Shown piece after piece: positions 1-20,174 of a DNA stretch of 48,534 nt; the first letter of the stretch is position 1, and each line of letters starts with the position of its first letter. The DNA is from Eubacteriales bacterium (GTDB lineage: Bacteria; Bacillota; Clostridia; Oscillospirales; CAG-272). A program made the translations under genes and the position numbers. Under the pieces are notes generated by a model. The model did not search any database and was not told the origin of the DNA. It worked only from the letters and a program-made list of their open reading frames with translations. The DNA lies in assembly GCA_045576195.1 (NCBI GenBank), contig JAZNFZ010000030.1, positions 1 through 48,534 of the forward strand. The letters are read 5' to 3'.

Positions 1-91
1 ATGATATGAAACGAATACGAGAGAACGAAGAACGGCAGCTCTTATCTTCGAAAGATATGGAGATACGAGTGTCTTACACCGTAACAAGCAG

Positions 92-160
92 GACGTTTGT
101 GTGCCAAACGTCGCCCCGCAACAAGGCTTTTGTGGCAGAGATTTTAGGGGATGCCCCTAA
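92..160 (+). promoter_or_regulatory. Candidate oriT region (two short inverted repeats upstream of mobC)
   Basis: Hairpins GACGTTTG-tgtgc-CAAACGTC (92-112) and TTAGGGG-atg-CCCCTAA (144-160) lie just upstream of mobC/relaxase, the usual oriT position. No nick-site consensus was recognised. Confidence 0.3.
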
Positions 161-184
161 TACCCCGAATGAAAGGATGGTTTT

Positions 185-511
185 ATGAAAAAAGAAGATA
201 TTAGAATCGTTGCCCGCGTTACGCAAAATGAGAAGGAGCGTATCAACTCCATAGCCGAAAATTGCGGGCTAAGCACAACCGAATATATCCGTCAGAGAGC
301 GTTGGGATTTGAGCCGAGATCGGTTCCGCCTGACGCTCTTTTTGCTTTCTGCGAGAAATTGGACGTACTCATCGAGCCACCGTTCTCCGCAGAGGTCAAC
401 GCGGCGGCGCTCGCATTACTAAGGGATATATCCGACACATTGATTGCGCCGAGAAAGGAGAATATGCGTAAATGGCAACCACAGGATTCTGGCCCGTCAA
501 AGGACGGTTGA
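185..511 (+). CDS. mobC: MobC-like relaxosome accessory protein (ribbon-helix-helix type)
   Basis: 108-aa ORF. The N-terminal segment IRIVARVTQNEKERINSIAENCGLSTTEYIRQRALG resembles the MobC family. It overlaps the relaxase start by 40 nt. Confidence 0.7.
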   Translation: MKKEDIRIVARVTQNEKERINSIAENCGLSTTEYIRQRALGFEPRSVPPDALFAFCEKLDVLIEPPFSAEVNAAALALLRDISDTLIAPRKENMRKWQPQDSGPSKDG

Positions 512-1845
512 AAGAGGTTATCGACTATGCGAACAATCCCGACAAAACCACCGCCAAGGAATATCTTGACGAGGACTTATATGCGGCGATTCGCTATGTA
601 GAGAATGACTCTAAAACCGACCACACGGCATTCGTCACGGGCATCAACTGCTCCAAGCACAATGCCTATCACGAAATGATTGCCGTGAAGCGCCGTTTCG
701 GTGAGCGCGGGAAGAATATCGCCTACCACGGATACCAAAGCTTTGCCGAGGGCGAGGTTACTCCCGAGGAAGCGCATCAGATCGGCGTGGAAACCGCGCG
801 GAAGATGTGGGGCGCGAAATATCAAGTGGTCGTTACCACCCATCTCAACACTGATAACATCCACAACCATTTCGTAATCAATAGCGTTTCCTTTACCGAC
901 GGCAAGAAATTCCGCAACAGTATTGGCGACCGTTTGGAGCTTAGAAAAATCTCCGATGCCATCTGTGCCGAAAGAAGTAAATCGGTTATAGAGAGCCACA
1001 AATTTTATAGCAACAAGAAGGCGTATTGGGCGCAAAAAGCGGGACACGTCACCCACCGCGAAATGTTGAGACGCGACATGGAGGAAGCACTATCCAAGTG
1101 CATTACCCACAATGAATTTGTGGCATATATGAAAACTCTTGGATATACCTTTACGAGAGATTTCAGATACGACCATCCCTCCGTTATTTCGGCGGGGTGG
1201 TCGCGTGCTGTCCGTATCAGCAGTTTGGGTGATCGGTATTCAAAAGAGAATCTTATTAACCGTTTCCGTTGGAATTACGATCATATCGAGCAAATAAAGT
1301 TTAACCCACCGAAATCGAAGCGCAAGCCATTTCTTGATTTTGAATACCAAATGCGAGAAGCGGCGCAGATGGATGGGCTTCAACTCTTATTTGCCATTAT
1401 CGTTGAACTATTTAAGATCTGCACGGGCAACAATGTGCAGGAAGCGGACAACCGACCACTCTCTCCGATGATACGCACCGAGGCATCGAAAGCCGACAAA
1501 TATATGGAAGAATATTGGCTCTTGCGCGACCACTTTATCGAGTCGCCGCAGGAGCTTTTGTCATTTCAGCAGAATAAGGCGGCTCAAATTGCCGAGTTGG
1601 AGCAGAAACGCTATGAATTGCGCTTGCGGATTCGCCGCGTGAAAACGCCCGAGGAAGAAGCATCGCTCAAAGATCAATGCAAGGAGCTGACAAAGAAAAT
1701 GATGCCCTTGCGCAAACAATTAAAGATTTCTCTGCGCATTGAGCAACACACCCCACGTATCAAAGAATTGCTTGATGCCGAGCGAGAGATTGAACTAAAG
1801 AACAATGGACTTATCCAAAAGAAAGAAAAAACAAGAACGAGGTAA
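472..1845 (+). CDS. Mobilization relaxase (MobA/VirD2-type relaxase/nuclease domain)
   Basis: 457 aa. Histidine-triad motif HLNTDNIHNHFVINSV in the N-domain and a charged coiled-coil-like C-terminal tail. AAGGAG RBS upstream of the ATG. Confidence 0.85.
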   Translation: MATTGFWPVKGRLKEVIDYANNPDKTTAKEYLDEDLYAAIRYVENDSKTDHTAFVTGINCSKHNAYHEMIAVKRRFGERGKNIAYHGYQSFAEGEVTPEEAHQIGVETARKMWGAKYQVVVTTHLNTDNIHNHFVINSVSFTDGKKFRNSIGDRLELRKISDAICAERSKSVIESHKFYSNKKAYWAQKAGHVTHREMLRRDMEEALSKCITHNEFVAYMKTLGYTFTRDFRYDHPSVISAGWSRAVRISSLGDRYSKENLINRFRWNYDHIEQIKFNPPKSKRKPFLDFEYQMREAAQMDGLQLLFAIIVELFKICTGNNVQEADNRPLSPMIRTEASKADKYMEEYWLLRDHFIESPQELLSFQQNKAAQIAELEQKRYELRLRIRRVKTPEEEASLKDQCKELTKKMMPLRKQLKISLRIEQHTPRIKELLDAEREIELKNNGLIQKKEKTRTR

Positions 1846-1851
1846 AATGAT

Positions 1852-2706
1852 ATGAAAAACACGAAAAATATATTGATTGAGAAATTACACGCATTTGAAA
1901 ACCACCCTTACAAGGTGCAGGACAACGAAGAAATGGAGCGCCTTTCCGAGAGTATTCGAGAGCACGGCGTTCTATCACCCATTATCGTTCGCCCTAAGGA
2001 GAATACCGAAGATGAATACGAGATCATATCCGGTCACAGACGGGTTATGGCAAGCCAAAAGGCAGGGATCAAAGAGGTCCCTGCCTTAATCGTTTCTCTC
2101 GACCGTGACGCGGCGGCAATCGTTTTGGTGGATAGCAACCTCCACCGCGAGCATATTCTGCCGAGCGAGAAAGCCTTTGCTTACAAGATGAAAGCCGATG
2201 CAATGGCGCATCAAGGTTGGAGGTCTGATTTAACTTCGTGCCAAGTTGGCGCGAAGTTGAGAACCGACGAGCAAATTGCCGTCGATAGCAATGAAAGCGC
2301 AAGACAAGTTCAGCGTTATATCCGCCTTACAAATCTTATTCCCGAAATCCTTGAATACGTGGACGAGGGGCGCATTTCCTTTACTCCCGCCGTGGAGCTT
2401 TCCTATCTCGACGAGCAAGAGCAATACGACCTCTTGGAGCAGATGGAGATCAACGATTGCACTCCGTCGCTTTCGCAGGCTTGCCGCTTCAAGAAGATTA
2501 GCTTCGAGCAGGGATTAACTCCCCAAATTATTGCCGAGATTATGAGCGAGGAAAAGGCAAATCAGAAGGAAATGTTCAAGGTGCCGATGGAGCGTATCAG
2601 AAAGTATATCCCCAAAGGCAACGCCAAACAGACTGAGGACTTCGTGCTCAAAGCCTGCGAGCATTACTACAAAGTCCTTCAACGCAAAAAAGAGCGAAGC
2701 TTATAA
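1852..2706 (+). CDS. ParB-like N-terminal (nuclease/partition) domain protein
   Basis: 284 aa. ParB-box-like motif IISGHRRVMASQKAGIKEVPALIV. Position directly after the relaxase is typical of Clostridial mobilizable elements. Confidence 0.75.
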   Translation: MKNTKNILIEKLHAFENHPYKVQDNEEMERLSESIREHGVLSPIIVRPKENTEDEYEIISGHRRVMASQKAGIKEVPALIVSLDRDAAAIVLVDSNLHREHILPSEKAFAYKMKADAMAHQGWRSDLTSCQVGAKLRTDEQIAVDSNESARQVQRYIRLTNLIPEILEYVDEGRISFTPAVELSYLDEQEQYDLLEQMEINDCTPSLSQACRFKKISFEQGLTPQIIAEIMSEEKANQKEMFKVPMERIRKYIPKGNAKQTEDFVLKACEHYYKVLQRKKERSL

Positions 2707-2718
2707 GGAGGACTGCCT

Positions 2719-2940
2719 ATGACCAAACGCCCAAAAATCGACGTAGCACTCCCCGAAGAACTGCTCAATTCCTTTGCCAAAGCCTTAGTGCCCGAGATAC
2801 GCGCGTTTTACGACAGCGACGTGGGCAAAGCCTACTTTGAAAAGTGGCTCGCTAAGCACCCCGAATACTATGAAAGGACACCCGATGCTCTTGCGTCGGG
2901 TGTTTCCGTAGCGGTACAATCGACTTATCAAGAGAAATAA
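2719..2940 (+). CDS. Small hypothetical protein of the mobile element
   Basis: 73-aa ORF with a strong RBS (AAGGAGG), tightly spaced between the ParB-like gene and the recombinase. No recognisable motif. Confidence 0.55.
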   Translation: MTKRPKIDVALPEELLNSFAKALVPEIRAFYDSDVGKAYFEKWLAKHPEYYERTPDALASGVSVAVQSTYQEK

Positions 2941-2975
2941 TTATAATTATATTAGGACGAATAGGAGGTATTACA

Positions 2976-4628
2976 ATGAACGTAGTAATATACGCTCGAT
3001 TTTCAAGCCATAGTCAGACCGAGCAATCCATCGAAGGTCAGTTAAAGGTCTGTTACGAATATGCCGAATCTCACAATTACACTATTGTGGGTGAATATAT
3101 CGACCGCGCGCAAAGCGGTAAGTTTGATAACCGCGCAGATTTCCAAAGAATGATTGCGGATAGCGACAAGCATACCTTTGAGGGTGTGCTTGTCTATCAG
3201 CTTGACCGCTTTGCACGTAACCGTTACGATAGTGCAATATACAAAGCCAAGCTGAAGAAGAACGGAGTCCGAGTGATGTCTGCCAAGGAAAATATCTCGG
3301 ACGATGCCTCGGGCATTCTTATCGAGGGTGTTCTTGAAAGTATGGCAGAATACTATTCCGTAGAGCTTGCGCAGAAGATAAACCGAGGTATGGCAATCAA
3401 CGCAGAGAAATGTCTATCCAACGGCAGCAATCCCGGACTTGGATATAAGGTAAACAAAGATCGCACCTTTTCGGTTGACGAGGAAGAAGCGGCAATCGTC
3501 CGCGAGATCTACGAGCGTTACGCAAGCGGAGAAACCAAAGCCGAGATCGTCAAGGACTTACAACGAAGGAAGGTCAAGACCTCAATCGGTAACGAGTTTA
3601 CCTACAACAGCCTCAGCCATCTTCTCAAAAACAAACGCTATATCGGCATATATTTATACAAAGGAGTTGAAACGCCCGGTGGAATGCCGCGTATTATGGA
3701 CGACGACTTATTCTATCGGGTACAAGCGCTTATGAACAAGAACAAATCCGCACCTGCGCGGACTCGCGGTGAAAATGAATACCTTTTGACAACCAAGCTT
3801 TTCTGCGGTCATTGCAAGGAAATGATGGTCGGCTACGGCGGCACGGGCAAGTCGGGCAGACAGTACCATTATTATAAATGCAAGAACTCTCGCAAAAACA
3901 AATGCGATAAGAAGGTTGTCGGTAAGGAGTATATTGAAAACCGCGTAATCGAAGTGTGCCTGCAAATGCTCACCGACGATAAGATACGCTATATTGCAAA
4001 GCGGGTTGCGGAGGAATGCAACAAGAGTCCCGACAACCTTTCAATAAAGGAAATCAAGAAAGCCATCAAAGAGGTAGATACCGCGATTGAGAACCTTTGG
4101 AAAGGCATTGAGCAAGGACAAGCGGTGGATATGTTGACAGAACGTCTTAACCGCCGCCAAGCCGAGAAAACCGAATTGGAAACACAGCTTGCTATTGAGA
4201 GCAACAAGAAAATCTGTTTGACCGAGGCGCAGATATATGCCTTTCTTGATTTCGTTTGCGAAATGCCGATGGACGATTTCAATAAGCGCAGAGCGCTCAT
4301 CAACATCTTCGTACACTCGGTCTATCTGTACGATGACCATTTCACGTTGATCATCAACGCGAGCAAGAAGCCTTTGAGCATCGACAATATCCCGCTTGAC
4401 GATATTGAAGAAGCTTTTGAGGGCGAAAATGAAGGAAAGGAGGGGTGTTCGTCTATGGCGACACCCGCTCCACCAGCGCAAAAGAGCCGCAAATGCGGCT
4501 CTTTTTTTATGCGTTGGTGGACCCGAGGGGACAAATCGAAACCCTGCGAAAGGTGCGAAACAAAAAGAGGTGGGGGAGAGAATGGAAGGCCTTTTTTGAG
4601 GGGAGCGCAGGCTGTGGCGCACCTTTAA
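2976..4628 (+). CDS. Large serine recombinase (resolvase/invertase N-domain, recombinase domain, zinc ribbon, coiled coil)
   Basis: 550-aa ORF. Catalytic-serine N-terminus VVIYARFSSHSQTEQSIEGQ, motif YQLDRFARN, and Cys-rich ribbon CGHC...YYKCKNSRKNKC. RBS AGGAGG. The last ~53 codons (4470-4628) are encoded by the tandem repeat, so the true C-terminus is uncertain. Confidence 0.9.
   Translation: MNVVIYARFSSHSQTEQSIEGQLKVCYEYAESHNYTIVGEYIDRAQSGKFDNRADFQRMIADSDKHTFEGVLVYQLDRFARNRYDSAIYKAKLKKNGVRVMSAKENISDDASGILIEGVLESMAEYYSVELAQKINRGMAINAEKCLSNGSNPGLGYKVNKDRTFSVDEEEAAIVREIYERYASGETKAEIVKDLQRRKVKTSIGNEFTYNSLSHLLKNKRYIGIYLYKGVETPGGMPRIMDDDLFYRVQALMNKNKSAPARTRGENEYLLTTKLFCGHCKEMMVGYGGTGKSGRQYHYYKCKNSRKNKCDKKVVGKEYIENRVIEVCLQMLTDDKIRYIAKRVAEECNKSPDNLSIKEIKKAIKEVDTAIENLWKGIEQGQAVDMLTERLNRRQAEKTELETQLAIESNKKICLTEAQIYAFLDFVCEMPMDDFNKRRALINIFVHSVYLYDDHFTLIINASKKPLSIDNIPLDDIEEAFEGENEGKEGCSSMATPAPPAQKSRKCGSFFMRWWTRGDKSKPCERCETKRGGGENGRPFLRGAQAVAHL
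4470..4520. other. 51-nt palindrome with bidirectional-terminator-like core (copy 1); candidate recombination site or terminator
   Basis: CCACCAGCGC-AAAAGAGCCGC-aaat-GCGGCTCTTTTTTTAT-GCGTTGGTGG. The outer 10-nt arms are complementary with one G-T pair. The core is a 7-bp GC stem flanked by an A-run and a T-run. Confidence 0.6.
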
Positions 4629-4677
4629 GCAGCCGAGGGCGGCAATGACGCCCTTGCCTGCGGGGTTCCGATTCCCC

Positions 4678-4728
4678 CCACCAGCGCAAAAGAGCCGCAA
4701 ATGCGGCTCTTTTTTTATGCGTTGGTGG
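4678..4728. other. 51-nt palindrome with bidirectional-terminator-like core (copy 2)
   Basis: Identical to 4470-4520, one period (208 bp) downstream. Confidence 0.6.
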
Positions 4729-4885
4729 ACCCGAGGGGACAAATCGAAACCCTGCGAAAGGTGCGAAGCAGAAAGAGGTGGGGGAGAGAATGGAAGGCCT
4801 TTTTTGAGGGGAGCGCAGGCTGTGGCGCACCTTTAAGCAGCCGAGGGCGGCAATGGCGCCCTCGCCTGCGGGGTTCCGATTCCCC

Positions 4886-4923
4886 CCACCAGCGCAAAAG
4901 AGCCGCAAACGCGGCTCTTTTTT
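4886..4923. other. Truncated third palindrome: left arm and core hairpin kept, right arm replaced
   Basis: CCACCAGCGC-AAAAGAGCCGC-aaac-GCGGCTCTTTTTT, then cttgtaacag instead of atgcgttggtgg. The array ends exactly after the T-run. Confidence 0.6.
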
Positions 4924-4924
4924 C

Positions 4925-5320
4925 TTGTAACAGAAAACCACGCGATAGTGGCGTGGTTCGAAAAAGGCTATTGCCGATGAGAGGAAGCAAATAGAGGGCG
5001 AGAGTAGGATGTATTATAAGAAAGGCTCCCTTGTGCAAAGGGAGCTGTCGCCGCAGGCGACTGAGGGATTGTTGAACATAGAAAACAAAGCCAAAAGAGC
5101 AAAAAGAGAAAATCAAATTACAATCCCTTCGACGTTTTCTTACGAAAACGCCACCTCCCTTTACACAAGGGAGGCTTGAGACTTAGTCCCGCTTGAGCGG
5201 GGTTTCGTAACAAATGCATGGCTGGCAGGCCAATAAAAAGCGCACTTGTGCGCAGCCAGTAATATTAGGGCTATGCCCGAAACTGAAATACCCCCCGTTT
5301 TACGGGGGGATATTTATTTC
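4925..5320 (+). ncRNA. Candidate large structured non-coding element, copy A (unassigned family; strand inferred from the T-rich tail after the terminal hairpin)
   Basis: Collinear homology with 19755-20174. At least 7 hairpins. Compensatory changes between the copies in 3 stems. No shared ORF. Ends in a GC hairpin plus T-rich tail. Confidence 0.45.
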
Positions 5321-17481: not shown

Positions 17482-18174
17482 ATGTATCATATTTTAGTAG
17501 TAGACGACGAGATCCGCATCCGTTCCATCATCCGCAAATACGCGGAGTTTGAGGGGCATACCGTAACCGAGGCGGGAGACGGCATGGAGGCCGTGCGCCT
17601 GGTGAGAAATGGCGAATATGACATCATTATTTTGGATATTATGATGCCCGAGCTGGATGGCTTTTCCGCCTGTCGGGAGATCCGTCGGATCTCTGCCACC
17701 CCCATTATTATGCTCTCTGCGCGGGGCGAGGAGTATGACAAGATCAATGGCTTTGAGCTGGGGATCGACGACTATGTGGTCAAGCCCTTTTCTCCCCGCG
17801 AGTTGATGCTTCGCGTGGAGGCAGTGATGAAGCGCACGCGGCGCGGCGTGCGGCAGGAGAGGGCGCAGAATGAGATCGAGGAATTTGACAACGGCGGTCT
17901 TCGCGTGGACCTGACGGCCCGCATCGTGTATGTGGAGGGTGAGCGGGTAGAGATGTCGCCGAAGGAGTACGATCTCTTCTTTTACCTGCTTCGCAACCGC
18001 AATGTGGCGCTCACGCGCGAGCGCCTCATCAGCGAGGTGTGGGGCTACGATTTTTACGGCGATGCCCGCACGCTGGATACTCACATCAAGCTGCTTCGCA
18101 AGAGCCTTGGCAAATACAGCAGCTACATCGTGACCCTGCGTGGCGTGGGCTACCGCTTTGAGGAGCGCAAATGA
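17482..18174 (+). CDS. OmpR-family response regulator
   Basis: Receiver domain (ILVVDDE ... DIIILDIMMPELDG) plus a winged-helix C-terminus (TLRGVGYRF). Start at ATG 17482 after AAGAGGA. Confidence 0.9.
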   Translation: MYHILVVDDEIRIRSIIRKYAEFEGHTVTEAGDGMEAVRLVRNGEYDIIILDIMMPELDGFSACREIRRISATPIIMLSARGEEYDKINGFELGIDDYVVKPFSPRELMLRVEAVMKRTRRGVRQERAQNEIEEFDNGGLRVDLTARIVYVEGERVEMSPKEYDLFFYLLRNRNVALTRERLISEVWGYDFYGDARTLDTHIKLLRKSLGKYSSYIVTLRGVGYRFEERK

Positions 18175-19694
18175 GGCGGCGCGAGCAAAGGAGAGAGCGG
18201 CTGCATCATCGCGTGGGTATTCGCTGGCGACTCTTCGTCAGTCTTGCGATCTTTACCGTTGCCATTCTTATGGGGCTTTGGGTCTTTCAGATCAGGCTGC
18301 TCGGCTACTTTTACGAGCGCGAAAAGGTGGATGAGCTGCAGGACATTGCGGACGACCTGGCGGCGTATGTGACGGAGACAGACCTTGATGAGCGCGTGGA
18401 CAGCTATTCCTTCGATAAGCATATCTGCATTCGGGTGTTTCGGCTGAAAAGCGAGAGCGAGGGTCTGGTGGCGGAAAAAATTGCCGATTGCGATGTTTCC
18501 GACAACTGTATGATCCATCACCTCTCGGAGGATCTGCTCTCCGAGCTTTATGACAAGGCAAAGCAAAACGGCGGCAGCTACGATGAGCGCATGGAGCTGA
18601 GCCTTGGGGATAAGAGCGGCGAGGAGGGCTTTTATGTGCCCGGTATGCGCCCTCGGGTCAAGACCGTCAATGCCATCCATGTGGAGATCCTTCGCGTGGA
18701 TGAGCAGGATTATCTGGTGCTGCTGGATTCCGAGCTGACCCCGCTTGATGCCACCATCAAGACCCTGCAGGTGCAGTTCTCCTGGATCGCACTTTTTCTC
18801 CTGCTTGGCGTGCTGCTGCTCACCTTTTTCCTTTCGCACATCATTGCAAGCCCGCTGACCGCCATTACGGCCAAGGCGGGAAAGCTGGCAAAGGGGAACT
18901 ATGAGGCGGATTTTGAGGGGCGCGGCTATCGTGAGGCGCGGGAGCTGGCGGAGGCGCTGAATTTTGCCGCCCGCGAGATCGGTGCCACCGACCGCCTGCA
19001 AAAGGAGCTGATCGCCAACATCTCCCACGATCTTCGCACTCCCCTTACCATGATCCGCGGCTACGGCGAGATGCTAAGGGATATCCCGGGCGAAAATACG
19101 CCCGAAAATGTGCAGGTGATCATCGATGAGGCCAACAGACTCTCGGAGCTGGTAAGCGACCTGATGGACCTTTCCAAGCTGCAGGCAGGCACACAAAAGC
19201 CTACCCCTACCCGTTTTGACCTGACGGAGGTGGTGCGCGACGCGATGCAGCGCTACGAGGCGCTGGTGCGCCACGACGGCTACCGCATTGAGCTGGCGCT
19301 GGCGGGCGAGGCTCCCGTTCTGGCGGATCGCACGATGATCTTGCAGGTGATCTACAATCTGATCAACAATGCCGTCAATTACACGGGCGAGGGGCGTCGT
19401 GTCCGCGTCACCGAAACGGTTTCCGAGGGTCGGGTGCGGCTATCGGTCGCCGATGACGGAGAGGGAATTCCACCCGATAAGATCGGGGAGATCTGGGATC
19501 GCTACTATCGCGTGGATCGGATCCACAAGCGCGCCGTCATGGGCACGGGACTTGGCCTTTCCATTGTCAAAAGCGTGCTGGAGGCACATCACGCCTCCTA
19601 TGGCGTTGACAGCGCGGTGGGCGTGGGCAGTGTCTTTTGGTTTGAGCTTCCCTTGGCGGAGTCACCCTGCGACGGTGAAAAAAGCTCATCATAA
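18171..19694 (+). CDS. Sensor histidine kinase (two TM segments, HAMP, HisKA, HATPase_c)
   Basis: H-box ISHDLRTPLTMIRGYGEML, N-box NLINNAVNYT, and G-boxes DDGEGIP / GTGLGLSIV. ATGA overlap with the regulator gene. Confidence 0.9.
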   Translation: MRRREQRRERLHHRVGIRWRLFVSLAIFTVAILMGLWVFQIRLLGYFYEREKVDELQDIADDLAAYVTETDLDERVDSYSFDKHICIRVFRLKSESEGLVAEKIADCDVSDNCMIHHLSEDLLSELYDKAKQNGGSYDERMELSLGDKSGEEGFYVPGMRPRVKTVNAIHVEILRVDEQDYLVLLDSELTPLDATIKTLQVQFSWIALFLLLGVLLLTFFLSHIIASPLTAITAKAGKLAKGNYEADFEGRGYREARELAEALNFAAREIGATDRLQKELIANISHDLRTPLTMIRGYGEMLRDIPGENTPENVQVIIDEANRLSELVSDLMDLSKLQAGTQKPTPTRFDLTEVVRDAMQRYEALVRHDGYRIELALAGEAPVLADRTMILQVIYNLINNAVNYTGEGRRVRVTETVSEGRVRLSVADDGEGIPPDKIGEIWDRYYRVDRIHKRAVMGTGLGLSIVKSVLEAHHASYGVDSAVGVGSVFWFELPLAESPCDGEKSSS

Positions 19695-19705
19695 AAAATC
19701 CCCGC

Positions 19706-19756
19706 GGCATGAGCGTGATACTCCGTTAAGAGTATCACGCTCATGCCGTGCTTTTT
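19706..19756 (+). terminator. Intrinsic terminator of the kinase operon (unusually long, perfect 18-bp stem)
   Basis: GGCATGAGCGTGATACTC-cgttaa-GAGTATCACGCTCATGCC followed by gtgcttttt. Confidence 0.8.
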
Positions 19757-20174
19757 GTAAGACGAAAACCCCGCCATAGTGGCGGGTTTCCATAAAGGCT
19801 TTGCCGATGAGCAGAAAGCAAATAAAAATTCAGCGTAGAATGATCTTGAGTCAAAGGCTCCCTTGTGTAAAGGGAGCTGTCAGCGAAGCTGACTGAGGGA
19901 TTGTTTTGTGTAGATTATCGCTTTTTACAATCCCTCCGTCACGGCAAGCCGTGCCACCGCGACCACCGTGAAACGGTGTGTCGACGTGCTCACCGCAGGC
20001 GAGCACAGCTCCCATTTACACAAGGGAGGCTTGGTTTTAGTCCCGCTTGAGCGGGGTTTCGTAACAAATGCATGGCTGACAGGCCAATCCTTAGCGCACT
20101 TGTGCGTAGTCTGTAGTATTAGGGATATACCCGAAACTGAAATACCCCCCGCTATGCGGGTGGATTATTATTTT
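19755..20174 (+). ncRNA. Candidate large structured non-coding element, copy B (paralog of 4925-5320)
   Basis: Collinear with copy A. The last ~135 nt is ~85% identical by hand count. Stems are conserved with compensatory substitutions, and apical regions differ in length. Ends with CCCCCCGC-tat-GCGGGTGG plus attattatttt. Confidence 0.45.

Follow-up and report, generated by a model that had tools for sequence, protein, structure and literature searches.

Two regions on the forward (+) strand of the window, the 48,534-nt stretch of DNA that we analyzed, are very probably (at a probability of about 0.92) insertions of a non-autonomous element of the IS200/IS605 family, a PATE/MITE that would be mobilized in trans by a TnpA transposase. 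The first-pass annotation had described the same regions as a novel noncoding RNA gene of ~400 nt and its paralog. That proposal has to be abandoned: the copies belong to a multi-copy mobile element, their ends are the ends of an insertion sequence (IS) with a Y1 transposase, and the locus is not syntenic. As is characteristic of PATEs, the two regions share homologous left ends (LE) and right ends (RE) with the IS, present subterminal hairpins without terminal inverted repeats, lack target duplications and a transposase gene, and are copies of an amplified unit. What each of them retains of the IS is a left end of ~57-68 nt with a subterminal hairpin and a right end of ~112 nt with four hairpins, one of which is subterminal; ~225 nt of hairpin modules stand in place of tnpA.

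Two copies of a dispersed repeat

Reading of the sequence, a repeat finder and blastn all identified the two regions, hereafter copy A and copy B, as same-strand copies of one element. The extents first assigned to them (4925-5320 and 19755-20174) stood and only the exact ends were moved, to about 4927-5318 and 19757-20172, with an uncertainty of ~2 nt for both copies; for copy A, runs of T flank both junctions. These limits are based on a multi-copy alignment with flanks, LE and RE profiles and homology to autonomous copies in the case of A, and on the family alignment, end homology and the LE and RE profiles in the case of B. Nucleotides 1-149 are 80% identical and nucleotides 228-395 are 87% identical between the copies according to blastn. 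The repeat finder returned a 53-nt block at 89% identity (5021-5073 versus 19853-19905) and, in the 3' part, 88% identity over 137 nt (5183-5319 versus 20037-20173), close to the ~85% previously counted by hand. The middle of the copies can be aligned at hairpin stems only, and the list of open reading frames bears out that A and B have no frame in common. A 13-codon frame (MA[DG]RPI..) is kept in the right end with no Shine-Dalgarno sequence visible by eye, and a 29-codon frame of the consensus is broken in copy A; a small protein or type I toxin was rejected on these grounds.

The left end of copy A (4927-4981), common to the autonomous IS, carries the subterminal hairpin at 4936-4958, with GAAAA as a candidate guide on its 5' side. 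The interior specific to the PATE (4982-5206), which occupies the place of tnpA in the alignment to the IS, includes an internal inverted repeat detected by blastn (arms at 5022-5050 and 5149-5177), two hairpins predicted by folding (5047-5061 and 5133-5150), a helix (5063-5072 with 5120-5128) and a hairpin that aligns with the last tnpA codons of the IS (5188-5201). The right end (5207-5318), also common to the autonomous IS, presents hairpins at 5220-5231, 5240-5253 and 5268-5278, the subterminal hairpin at 5291-5309 and the terminal TTATT at 5314-5318. In copy B, the left-end subterminal hairpin CCCGCC ATAGT GGCGGG was located at 19770-19786 by a hairpin scan and covaries across the family, and the right end, defined by RE homology and alignment, extends from 20061 to 20172 with its subterminal hairpin at 20145-20163 and a terminal TTATT. 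Relative to the family consensus, copy B is of the consensus-type subfamily with a private insertion of ~51 nt carrying two hairpins (~19959-20009). Copy A represents a diverged subfamily, and its hairpin variants recur in other members of that subfamily. Both terminal hairpins of copy B present one mismatch relative to the consensus (GGCGGGT for GGCGGGG on the left, CCC for CCA on the right), and this copy appears to be decaying.

One genome per species was then searched with an exact 20-mer from the most conserved stretch of the element, in the right end (TTTCGTAACAAATGCATGGC). Matches were found at 68 loci in 25 metagenome-assembled genomes (MAGs) of gut and rumen Clostridia/Oscillospiraceae. 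Most of these matches are at contig ends, one MAG (JAZPZY01) having 19 such contigs, and ~140 nt of the repeat are retained at many MEGAHIT k141 contig ends, a pattern typical of repeats at which assemblies break. Copies of ~367 nt that are 93-99% identical occupy unrelated loci in these 25 MAGs, and most copies are 91-99% identical to the consensus copy, across different species. We aligned 16 full-length copies with 60 nt of flanking sequence: they present the same interior and the same LE/RE junctions at different loci, and their flanks are unrelated with the exception of a left flank common to two loci (L045 and L067). The ends are sharp and read 5'-(TT)GTA(A/T)nnnGAAAACC[hairpin] ... [hairpin]GGATnnTTATT-3', and a hairpin with a T run constitutes the left flank of every aligned full-length copy. 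Neither a terminal inverted repeat nor a target duplication was seen among the 16-18 copies aligned with flanks, so that a MITE of a DDE transposon was discarded. We also considered the leader of an rRNA operon, as many left ends lie ~40 nt from contig ends; Rfam searches of 12 loci returned no rRNA, one drum RNA and two tRNAs.

Several observations concern the surroundings of the copies. The first part of the window (1-4628) has a GC content of 47%, against 52-61% in other bins, and encodes a NikA-like protein (185-511), a MobA/VirD2 relaxase (472-1845), a ParB-like protein (1852-2706) and a large serine recombinase of 550 aa (2976-4628). This region looks like the end of an integrative mobilizable element and, since copy A lies at its edge, may have brought in the diverged A subfamily. 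An association of the repeat with the neighboring serine recombinase, or with the att site of this enzyme, was rejected because dozens of loci have the element without such a gene. Between the two lies a 208-nt tandem repeat (4470-4923; 2.2 copies, 97-98% identical) that starts inside the 3' end of the recombinase frame. The same terminator hairpin closes every unit, and copy A comes after the third of these hairpins; a recent duplication, an att-related feature and an assembly artefact are candidate origins for this repeat. Exact-protein look-ups of the flanking genes gave no record.

The interior module GGCTCCCTTGTGyAAAGGGAGCTGTCAGCGAAGCTGACTGAGGGATTG (5021-5073 and 19853-19905 in the window) also occurs alone in Vescimonas fastidiosa (L069, 3001-3047) and in three human-gut contigs labeled 'Bacteriophage sp.'; phage and plasmid collections yielded a match of 47-50 nt to a single interior module and nothing else. 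In Vescimonas, the spacer is crowded with further GC-rich hairpin repeats, among them GTAGGGGCGG... units of REP-like appearance, which points to a distinct family of short hairpin repeats dispersed among Oscillospiraceae.

The tnpA-carrying parent and the loss of its gene

A left-end pattern in which the four variable stem positions were left free (GAAAACCNCGCNATAGTNGCGNGGTTC) matched at least 120 metagenome contigs and 11 viral contigs. All-against-all comparison assigned most of these matches to an element of ~740 nt, which has the first ~100 nt and the last ~100-140 nt in common with the short elements. One of these longer elements, on a phage contig (L202, about 2056-2780), contains a 156-aa open reading frame with the motifs DHIHLL and GYYVDTVG (the HUH and Tyr motifs). 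Its product matches Pfam Y1_Tnp (5.8e-42) and the NCBIfam equivalog transpos_IS200 (2.1e-45), as well as the solved TnpA structures of Sulfolobus, IS608 and ISDra2 (E = 2e-29 to 2e-20); the match to the model of REP-associated tyrosine transposases was weak (36 bits for a cutoff of 80). We detected tnpA in 58 loci, internally deleted copies included, and TnpA has diverged to about 60% identity within the family.

Both ends of both window copies are homologous to the ends of these autonomous elements. Nucleotides 1-57 of copy A are 78-92% identical to the LE of tnpA-carrying copies and nucleotides 283-395 are 80-91% identical to their RE, with E values down to 8e-42. The corresponding figures for copy B are 76-86% for nucleotides 1-68 and 80-88% for nucleotides 307-420. 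Within the window, the LE and RE profiles match A and B only, and in the correct order. We found no credible tnpA in the 48.5-kb window using tblastn (best E = 0.037 over 24 aa, outside both copies) and none within 8 kb of the 68 MAG copies (L001-L068). No tnpB or iscB is linked to any copy and the parent IS carries tnpA only; together with the lack of a HEARO match in Rfam, this led us to reject an element encoding a TnpB/IscB guide RNA (omega RNA).

Other gene-less lineages were identified, in forms of ~450 nt and ~395 nt with differing interiors (L083/L129/L158 and L163). One of them, L163, is an intermediate that still reads ...ACCCGTTTACGGGTAGCAAGTAG. Further copies have a 5'-deleted or internally deleted tnpA (L090/L134 and L138), and L098 is another internally deleted intermediate. 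The existence of several short or deleted lineages of the same IS indicates that tnpA was lost repeatedly. Such intermediates would also be expected if full-length copies had decayed independently and in place, each losing tnpA locally, and the short form were not itself mobile. We regard this as most improbable, given that at least 16 copies present the same non-IS interior and the same LE/RE junctions, mostly at 91-99% identity, and that several distinct short lineages exist. A common interior and common junctions across copies indicate that the short form was itself amplified.

A few loci display more complex arrangements. On one viral contig (L195, 5447-5624), a full-length IS200-type copy directly follows a drum RNA (RF02958, 102 bits) and a terminator. 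On a 1,584-nt contig (L113), the left end abuts the RE hairpin of a second IS200-like element, 61% identical, with no T run, which suggests a nested or tandem insertion beside the terminal hairpin of another element. Finally, one short element (L033, 554-1675) contains an IS30-family transposase gene (321 aa, 710-1675, minus strand) at approximately consensus position 220; IS30 was dismissed as an autonomous partner, since this IS merely inserted into that copy.

Conservation of the hairpins and the question of RNA

Most of the stems on which the RNA proposal was built are present as it described them. The left-end stem H1 (AACCACGC/GCGTGGTT, 4936-4943 and 4951-4958) and the interior helix GAGGGATTGT/ACAATCCCT can be read in the sequence, H3 is GTCGCC/GGCGAC in A (5047-5052 and 5056-5061) against GTCAGC/GCTGAC in B (19879-19884 and 19888-19893), and the terminator scan recovered the GC hairpin with a T-rich tail at the 3' end (5291-5309, followed by ATATTTATTT). 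The 3'-domain stem was only partly as described: GCTGGC/GCCAGT does pair in copy A, but its counterpart in copy B (GCTGAC/GTCTGT) contains an additional T-T mismatch that had been missed.

We used the larger family to evaluate whether these stems covary. We counted 131 independent left-end instances, distinct in either flank or hairpin. Of the two pairs formed by the four free stem positions, the outer can pair in 131/131 cases (A-T 87, C-G 42, G-T 1, T-A 1) and the inner in 129/131 cases (G-C 85, C-G 44, unpaired 2). Across 49 right ends, the five local hairpins are 94.4% paired and double changes occurred in 11 of 25 pairs; none of 500 shuffles reached the observed covariation, and slid controls fell to 20-48% paired. 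The pair statistics at both ends thus substantiate the claim that selection keeps the hairpins. The long-range 3' stem GCTGGC/GCCAGT behaves differently: it is pairable in 89% of cells in the same 49 right ends and competes with a covarying local hairpin (GGC...GCC), and 499 of 500 shuffles equaled or exceeded the observed value over 49 family members. The prediction of covariation in a larger alignment was consequently borne out for the local hairpins and failed for this one of the three stems cited as compensatory.

By analogy with related transposases, this selection probably acts on the DNA hairpins bound by TnpA, and possibly on the structure of the tnpA mRNA, among lineages of the element. 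Hairpins of single-stranded DNA to which TnpA has to bind would be expected to undergo structure-preserving changes just as RNA stems do, and covariation is, therefore, no argument for RNA. The broken pair in each terminal hairpin of copy B is in line with selection among element lineages. Each strand of both copies folds with z-scores of -6.8 to -10 relative to shuffled sequences, and the fold is equally good on both strands. Equal folding of the strands is what palindromic DNA shows, and it does not tell whether either strand is an RNA, or which one.

These results bear directly on the possibility of a stand-alone structured RNA gene of ~400 nt with a paralog, whose stems would be kept for a function in the host. 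Folding far better than shuffled sequences, compensatory changes in the hairpins, a terminator-like hairpin at the 3' end and the absence of coding potential are all features that such a gene would present. However, its ends would not be expected to be homologous to those of a transposase-bearing IS, nor would tens of near-identical copies occupy unrelated loci and break assemblies, and a syntenic locus exists without the element. In addition, no promoter was predicted in copy A, both strands fold equally well as DNA palindromes would, copy B has a broken pair in both terminal hairpins and the long-range 3' stem does not covary. Rfam contains no known RNA family that matches at gathering score anywhere in the window, and relaxing the threshold to E <= 10 yielded chance-level matches only for the two regions, such as ncr1175 (28.7 bits, cutoff 60) and dauA (29 bits, cutoff 45). 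We therefore consider a host RNA gene to be extremely unlikely.

A different possibility is that the regions are indeed PATEs whose multi-hairpin right end, or whole length, is transcribed and acts as an RNA; candidate roles are a small or antisense RNA, a 3'-end stabilizer or terminator booster, and a guide-type RNA for a nuclease encoded in trans. IS608 TnpA needs, at each end, only one hairpin with its guide and cleavage sites. Three right-end hairpins beyond the one bound by TnpA covary here, despite the divergence of TnpA to about 60% identity, and interior hairpins are conserved between subfamilies, features that this requirement does not obviously explain. A regulatory antisense RNA has been described for IS200, and PATEs often encode guide RNAs according to Meers et al. 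(PMC10055086). Against a transcribed PATE, the parent is of the tnpA-only type, no copy has a linked TnpB or IscB gene, no Rfam family matched, HEARO included, and the hairpins may equally be single-stranded DNA structure or a passively inherited structure of the tnpA mRNA 3'-UTR. We consider a PATE acting as RNA unlikely, and it is quite unlikely that the ~112-nt right end, which gene-less copies keep intact, or the whole element is expressed as a discrete functional RNA, either regulatory or exploited by the host as a terminator or 3'-end module. If this was true, the family would spread functional RNA to many operon ends.

Target sites and proposed mobilization

Both copies lie directly downstream of an intrinsic terminator. 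A terminator scan identified the hairpin 4896-4921 followed by TTCTT (4922-4926) immediately 5' of copy A, giving a target at 4896-4926 on the + strand. The target of copy B (19703-19756, + strand) is the terminator of a histidine-kinase gene (18171-19694), with its hairpin at 19703-19750 and a T run ending in TTTTT (19752-19756). The same arrangement characterizes the family. Over 125 distinct left flanks, the five bases that precede GTA are T (0.90), T (0.89), N (T at 0.65), T (0.92) and T (0.93). This defines a TTNTT motif at the left flank, in one orientation, with no conservation of the right flank. In 117 of these 125 left flanks, the end of a stable hairpin is no more than 10 nt away from the junction, and the mean folding energy is -19.3 kcal/mol for left flanks compared with -6.9 kcal/mol for right flanks (Mann-Whitney p = 4e-28). 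IS608 inserts at TTAC and ISDra2 at TTGAT. The RE always finishes with TTATT, similar to the target motif, which makes the two cleavage sites resemble each other; within the T runs, the cuts cannot be assigned to one exact position.

Targeting of terminators raised the possibility of a group IIC intron, which likewise inserts directly after intrinsic-terminator hairpins in one orientation and whose ORF-less forms are ~400 nt long and highly structured. No Intron_gpII or group-II-D1D4 match was obtained even at E <= 10 and the element starts with GTAA or GTAT. Unlike these introns, it has no domain V/VI, its 5' end is not GUGYG and its ends are homologous to those of a DNA transposon with a Y1 transposase.

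Empty sites are consistent with insertion of the IS200-type element at the TTNTT motif. On the phage contig that carries the full-length IS (L202), the left flank ...GACTGC-TTTTTT is followed by CATACC in empty alleles and by GTATCAG in the filled one, and what lies before the right flank ATTATTAAGTG in empty alleles is another terminator with T6. These alleles fit an insertion 3' of TTNTT by an element running from GTA to TTATT. The two flanks of this IS (2027-2810) match the empty alleles of two different phage loci (L206-L229), so that this contig has recombined across the IS; several places reuse the phage terminator GCAGTTAGTCTTAGGATTGACTGC-T6. A search for empty sites with the flank of the drum-associated copy (L195) returned filled alleles only. 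For copy B, a relative (L074) presents the same order of genes, HtrA-response regulator-histidine kinase-methyltransferase, without the element: its kinase-methyltransferase spacer is 95 nt long, with a terminator, a T run and a promoter, versus 711 nt in the window. From this sequence comparison, copy B is an insertion and not a locus conserved in synteny; the relative, with a methyltransferase 65% identical, is the only empty comparison for B, and no filled/empty pair with near-identical flanks was found for the short element.

Two further features suggest how the ends might be recognized. The sequence 5' of the LE hairpin is GAAAA and that 5' of the RE hairpin is GAAA(A/T)A, the search pattern having itself fixed the guide region of the LE. 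These A-rich stretches 5' of the hairpin feet are candidate guides that may pair with the cleavage sites, as the guide tetranucleotides of IS608 do (PMC5934647). Every one of the twelve 4-kb bins of the window has a positive GC skew on the + strand and, taking the direction of replication from this skew alone, the top strand of A and B is weakly suggested to be on the lagging-strand template, consistent with the IS200/IS605 family (PMC5027513).

By analogy with IS608 and ISDra2, mobilization in trans would proceed through the peel-and-paste pathway. A Y1/HUH TnpA, provided by a full-length relative located at another site of the genome or in another member of the community, would bind both subterminal hairpins on the top strand while it is single-stranded at the replication fork. 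It would cut after the TTNTT of the flank at the left junction and after the terminal TTATT of the element, releasing the element as a single-stranded circle that would then be pasted 3' of another TTNTT, in this family nearly always the T run of an intrinsic terminator. Pasting at such T runs would explain the position of both window copies right behind a terminator and their orientation, which is that of the gene upstream. As for the compensatory substitutions, they would result from selection among element lineages, favoring hairpins to which TnpA still binds and possibly RNA structures of the transposon, rather than from an RNA function in the host.

The parent resembles IS200/IS1541 in its length of ~740 nt, its single gene for a Y1/HUH transposase of ~150 aa, the absence of terminal inverted repeats and target duplications, the left-end hairpin upstream of tnpA and the terminator-like sequences just upstream, which are over-represented at this position for IS200/IS605 elements (PMC13548323). 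The 5' UTR of the parent can pair over the Shine-Dalgarno sequence (CTCCTAATGTGT...ACACATTAGGAG), and RNA structures of this type are used by IS200, as far as the citation of Beuzon et al. 1999 in PMC13548323 goes. Unlike IS200/IS1541, the window copies do not carry tnpA and contain instead ~225 nt of unrelated hairpin modules. Likewise, the family has in common with IS608 of H. pylori and ISDra2 of D. radiodurans a homologous TnpA (E = 1e-21 and 1.6e-20 to the solved structures), subterminal hairpins and oriented insertion 3' of a short target that is kept at the left flank (TTNTT in the present family). The strand may also agree, being consistent with the lagging-strand template (PMC5027513). 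The short A-rich stretch 5' of each hairpin foot recalls IS608 in particular (PMC5934647), with guide pairing here predicted from sequence. In contrast, IS608 and ISDra2 also carry tnpB and a guide RNA, and no tnpB is present here.

PATE-like derivatives of IS200/IS605 elements have already been described (PMC10055086). As in the PATEs of haloarchaea and Geobacillus stearothermophilus (PMC10055086), the element is gene-less, keeps its LE and RE, is multi-copy and is predicted to be mobilized in trans by TnpA. It differs from these PATEs by its hosts, gut and rumen Clostridia/Oscillospiraceae, by its parent IS and by an interior made of hairpin modules that are found alone elsewhere in Oscillospiraceae. 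REP/BIME and BOX repeats are similarly extragenic, located after genes, built of modular hairpins in variable number and stably folded on both strands, but these do not possess the defined LE and RE of an IS200 element.

These results call for caution in the inference of RNA genes: structure-preserving substitutions between two intergenic repeats are alone no proof of an RNA gene, as the IS200/IS605 family of single-strand transposons exerts the same kind of selection on DNA hairpins. Annotation of the element is possible, and in MAGs of gut and rumen Clostridia it is a cause of broken assemblies. It also marks terminator-adjacent insertion sites, with an unusually clean target composed of a terminator hairpin and TTNTT. 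Finally, the LE and RE together (~170 nt) constitute a compact natural substrate for studying the IS200-type TnpA of gut Firmicutes.
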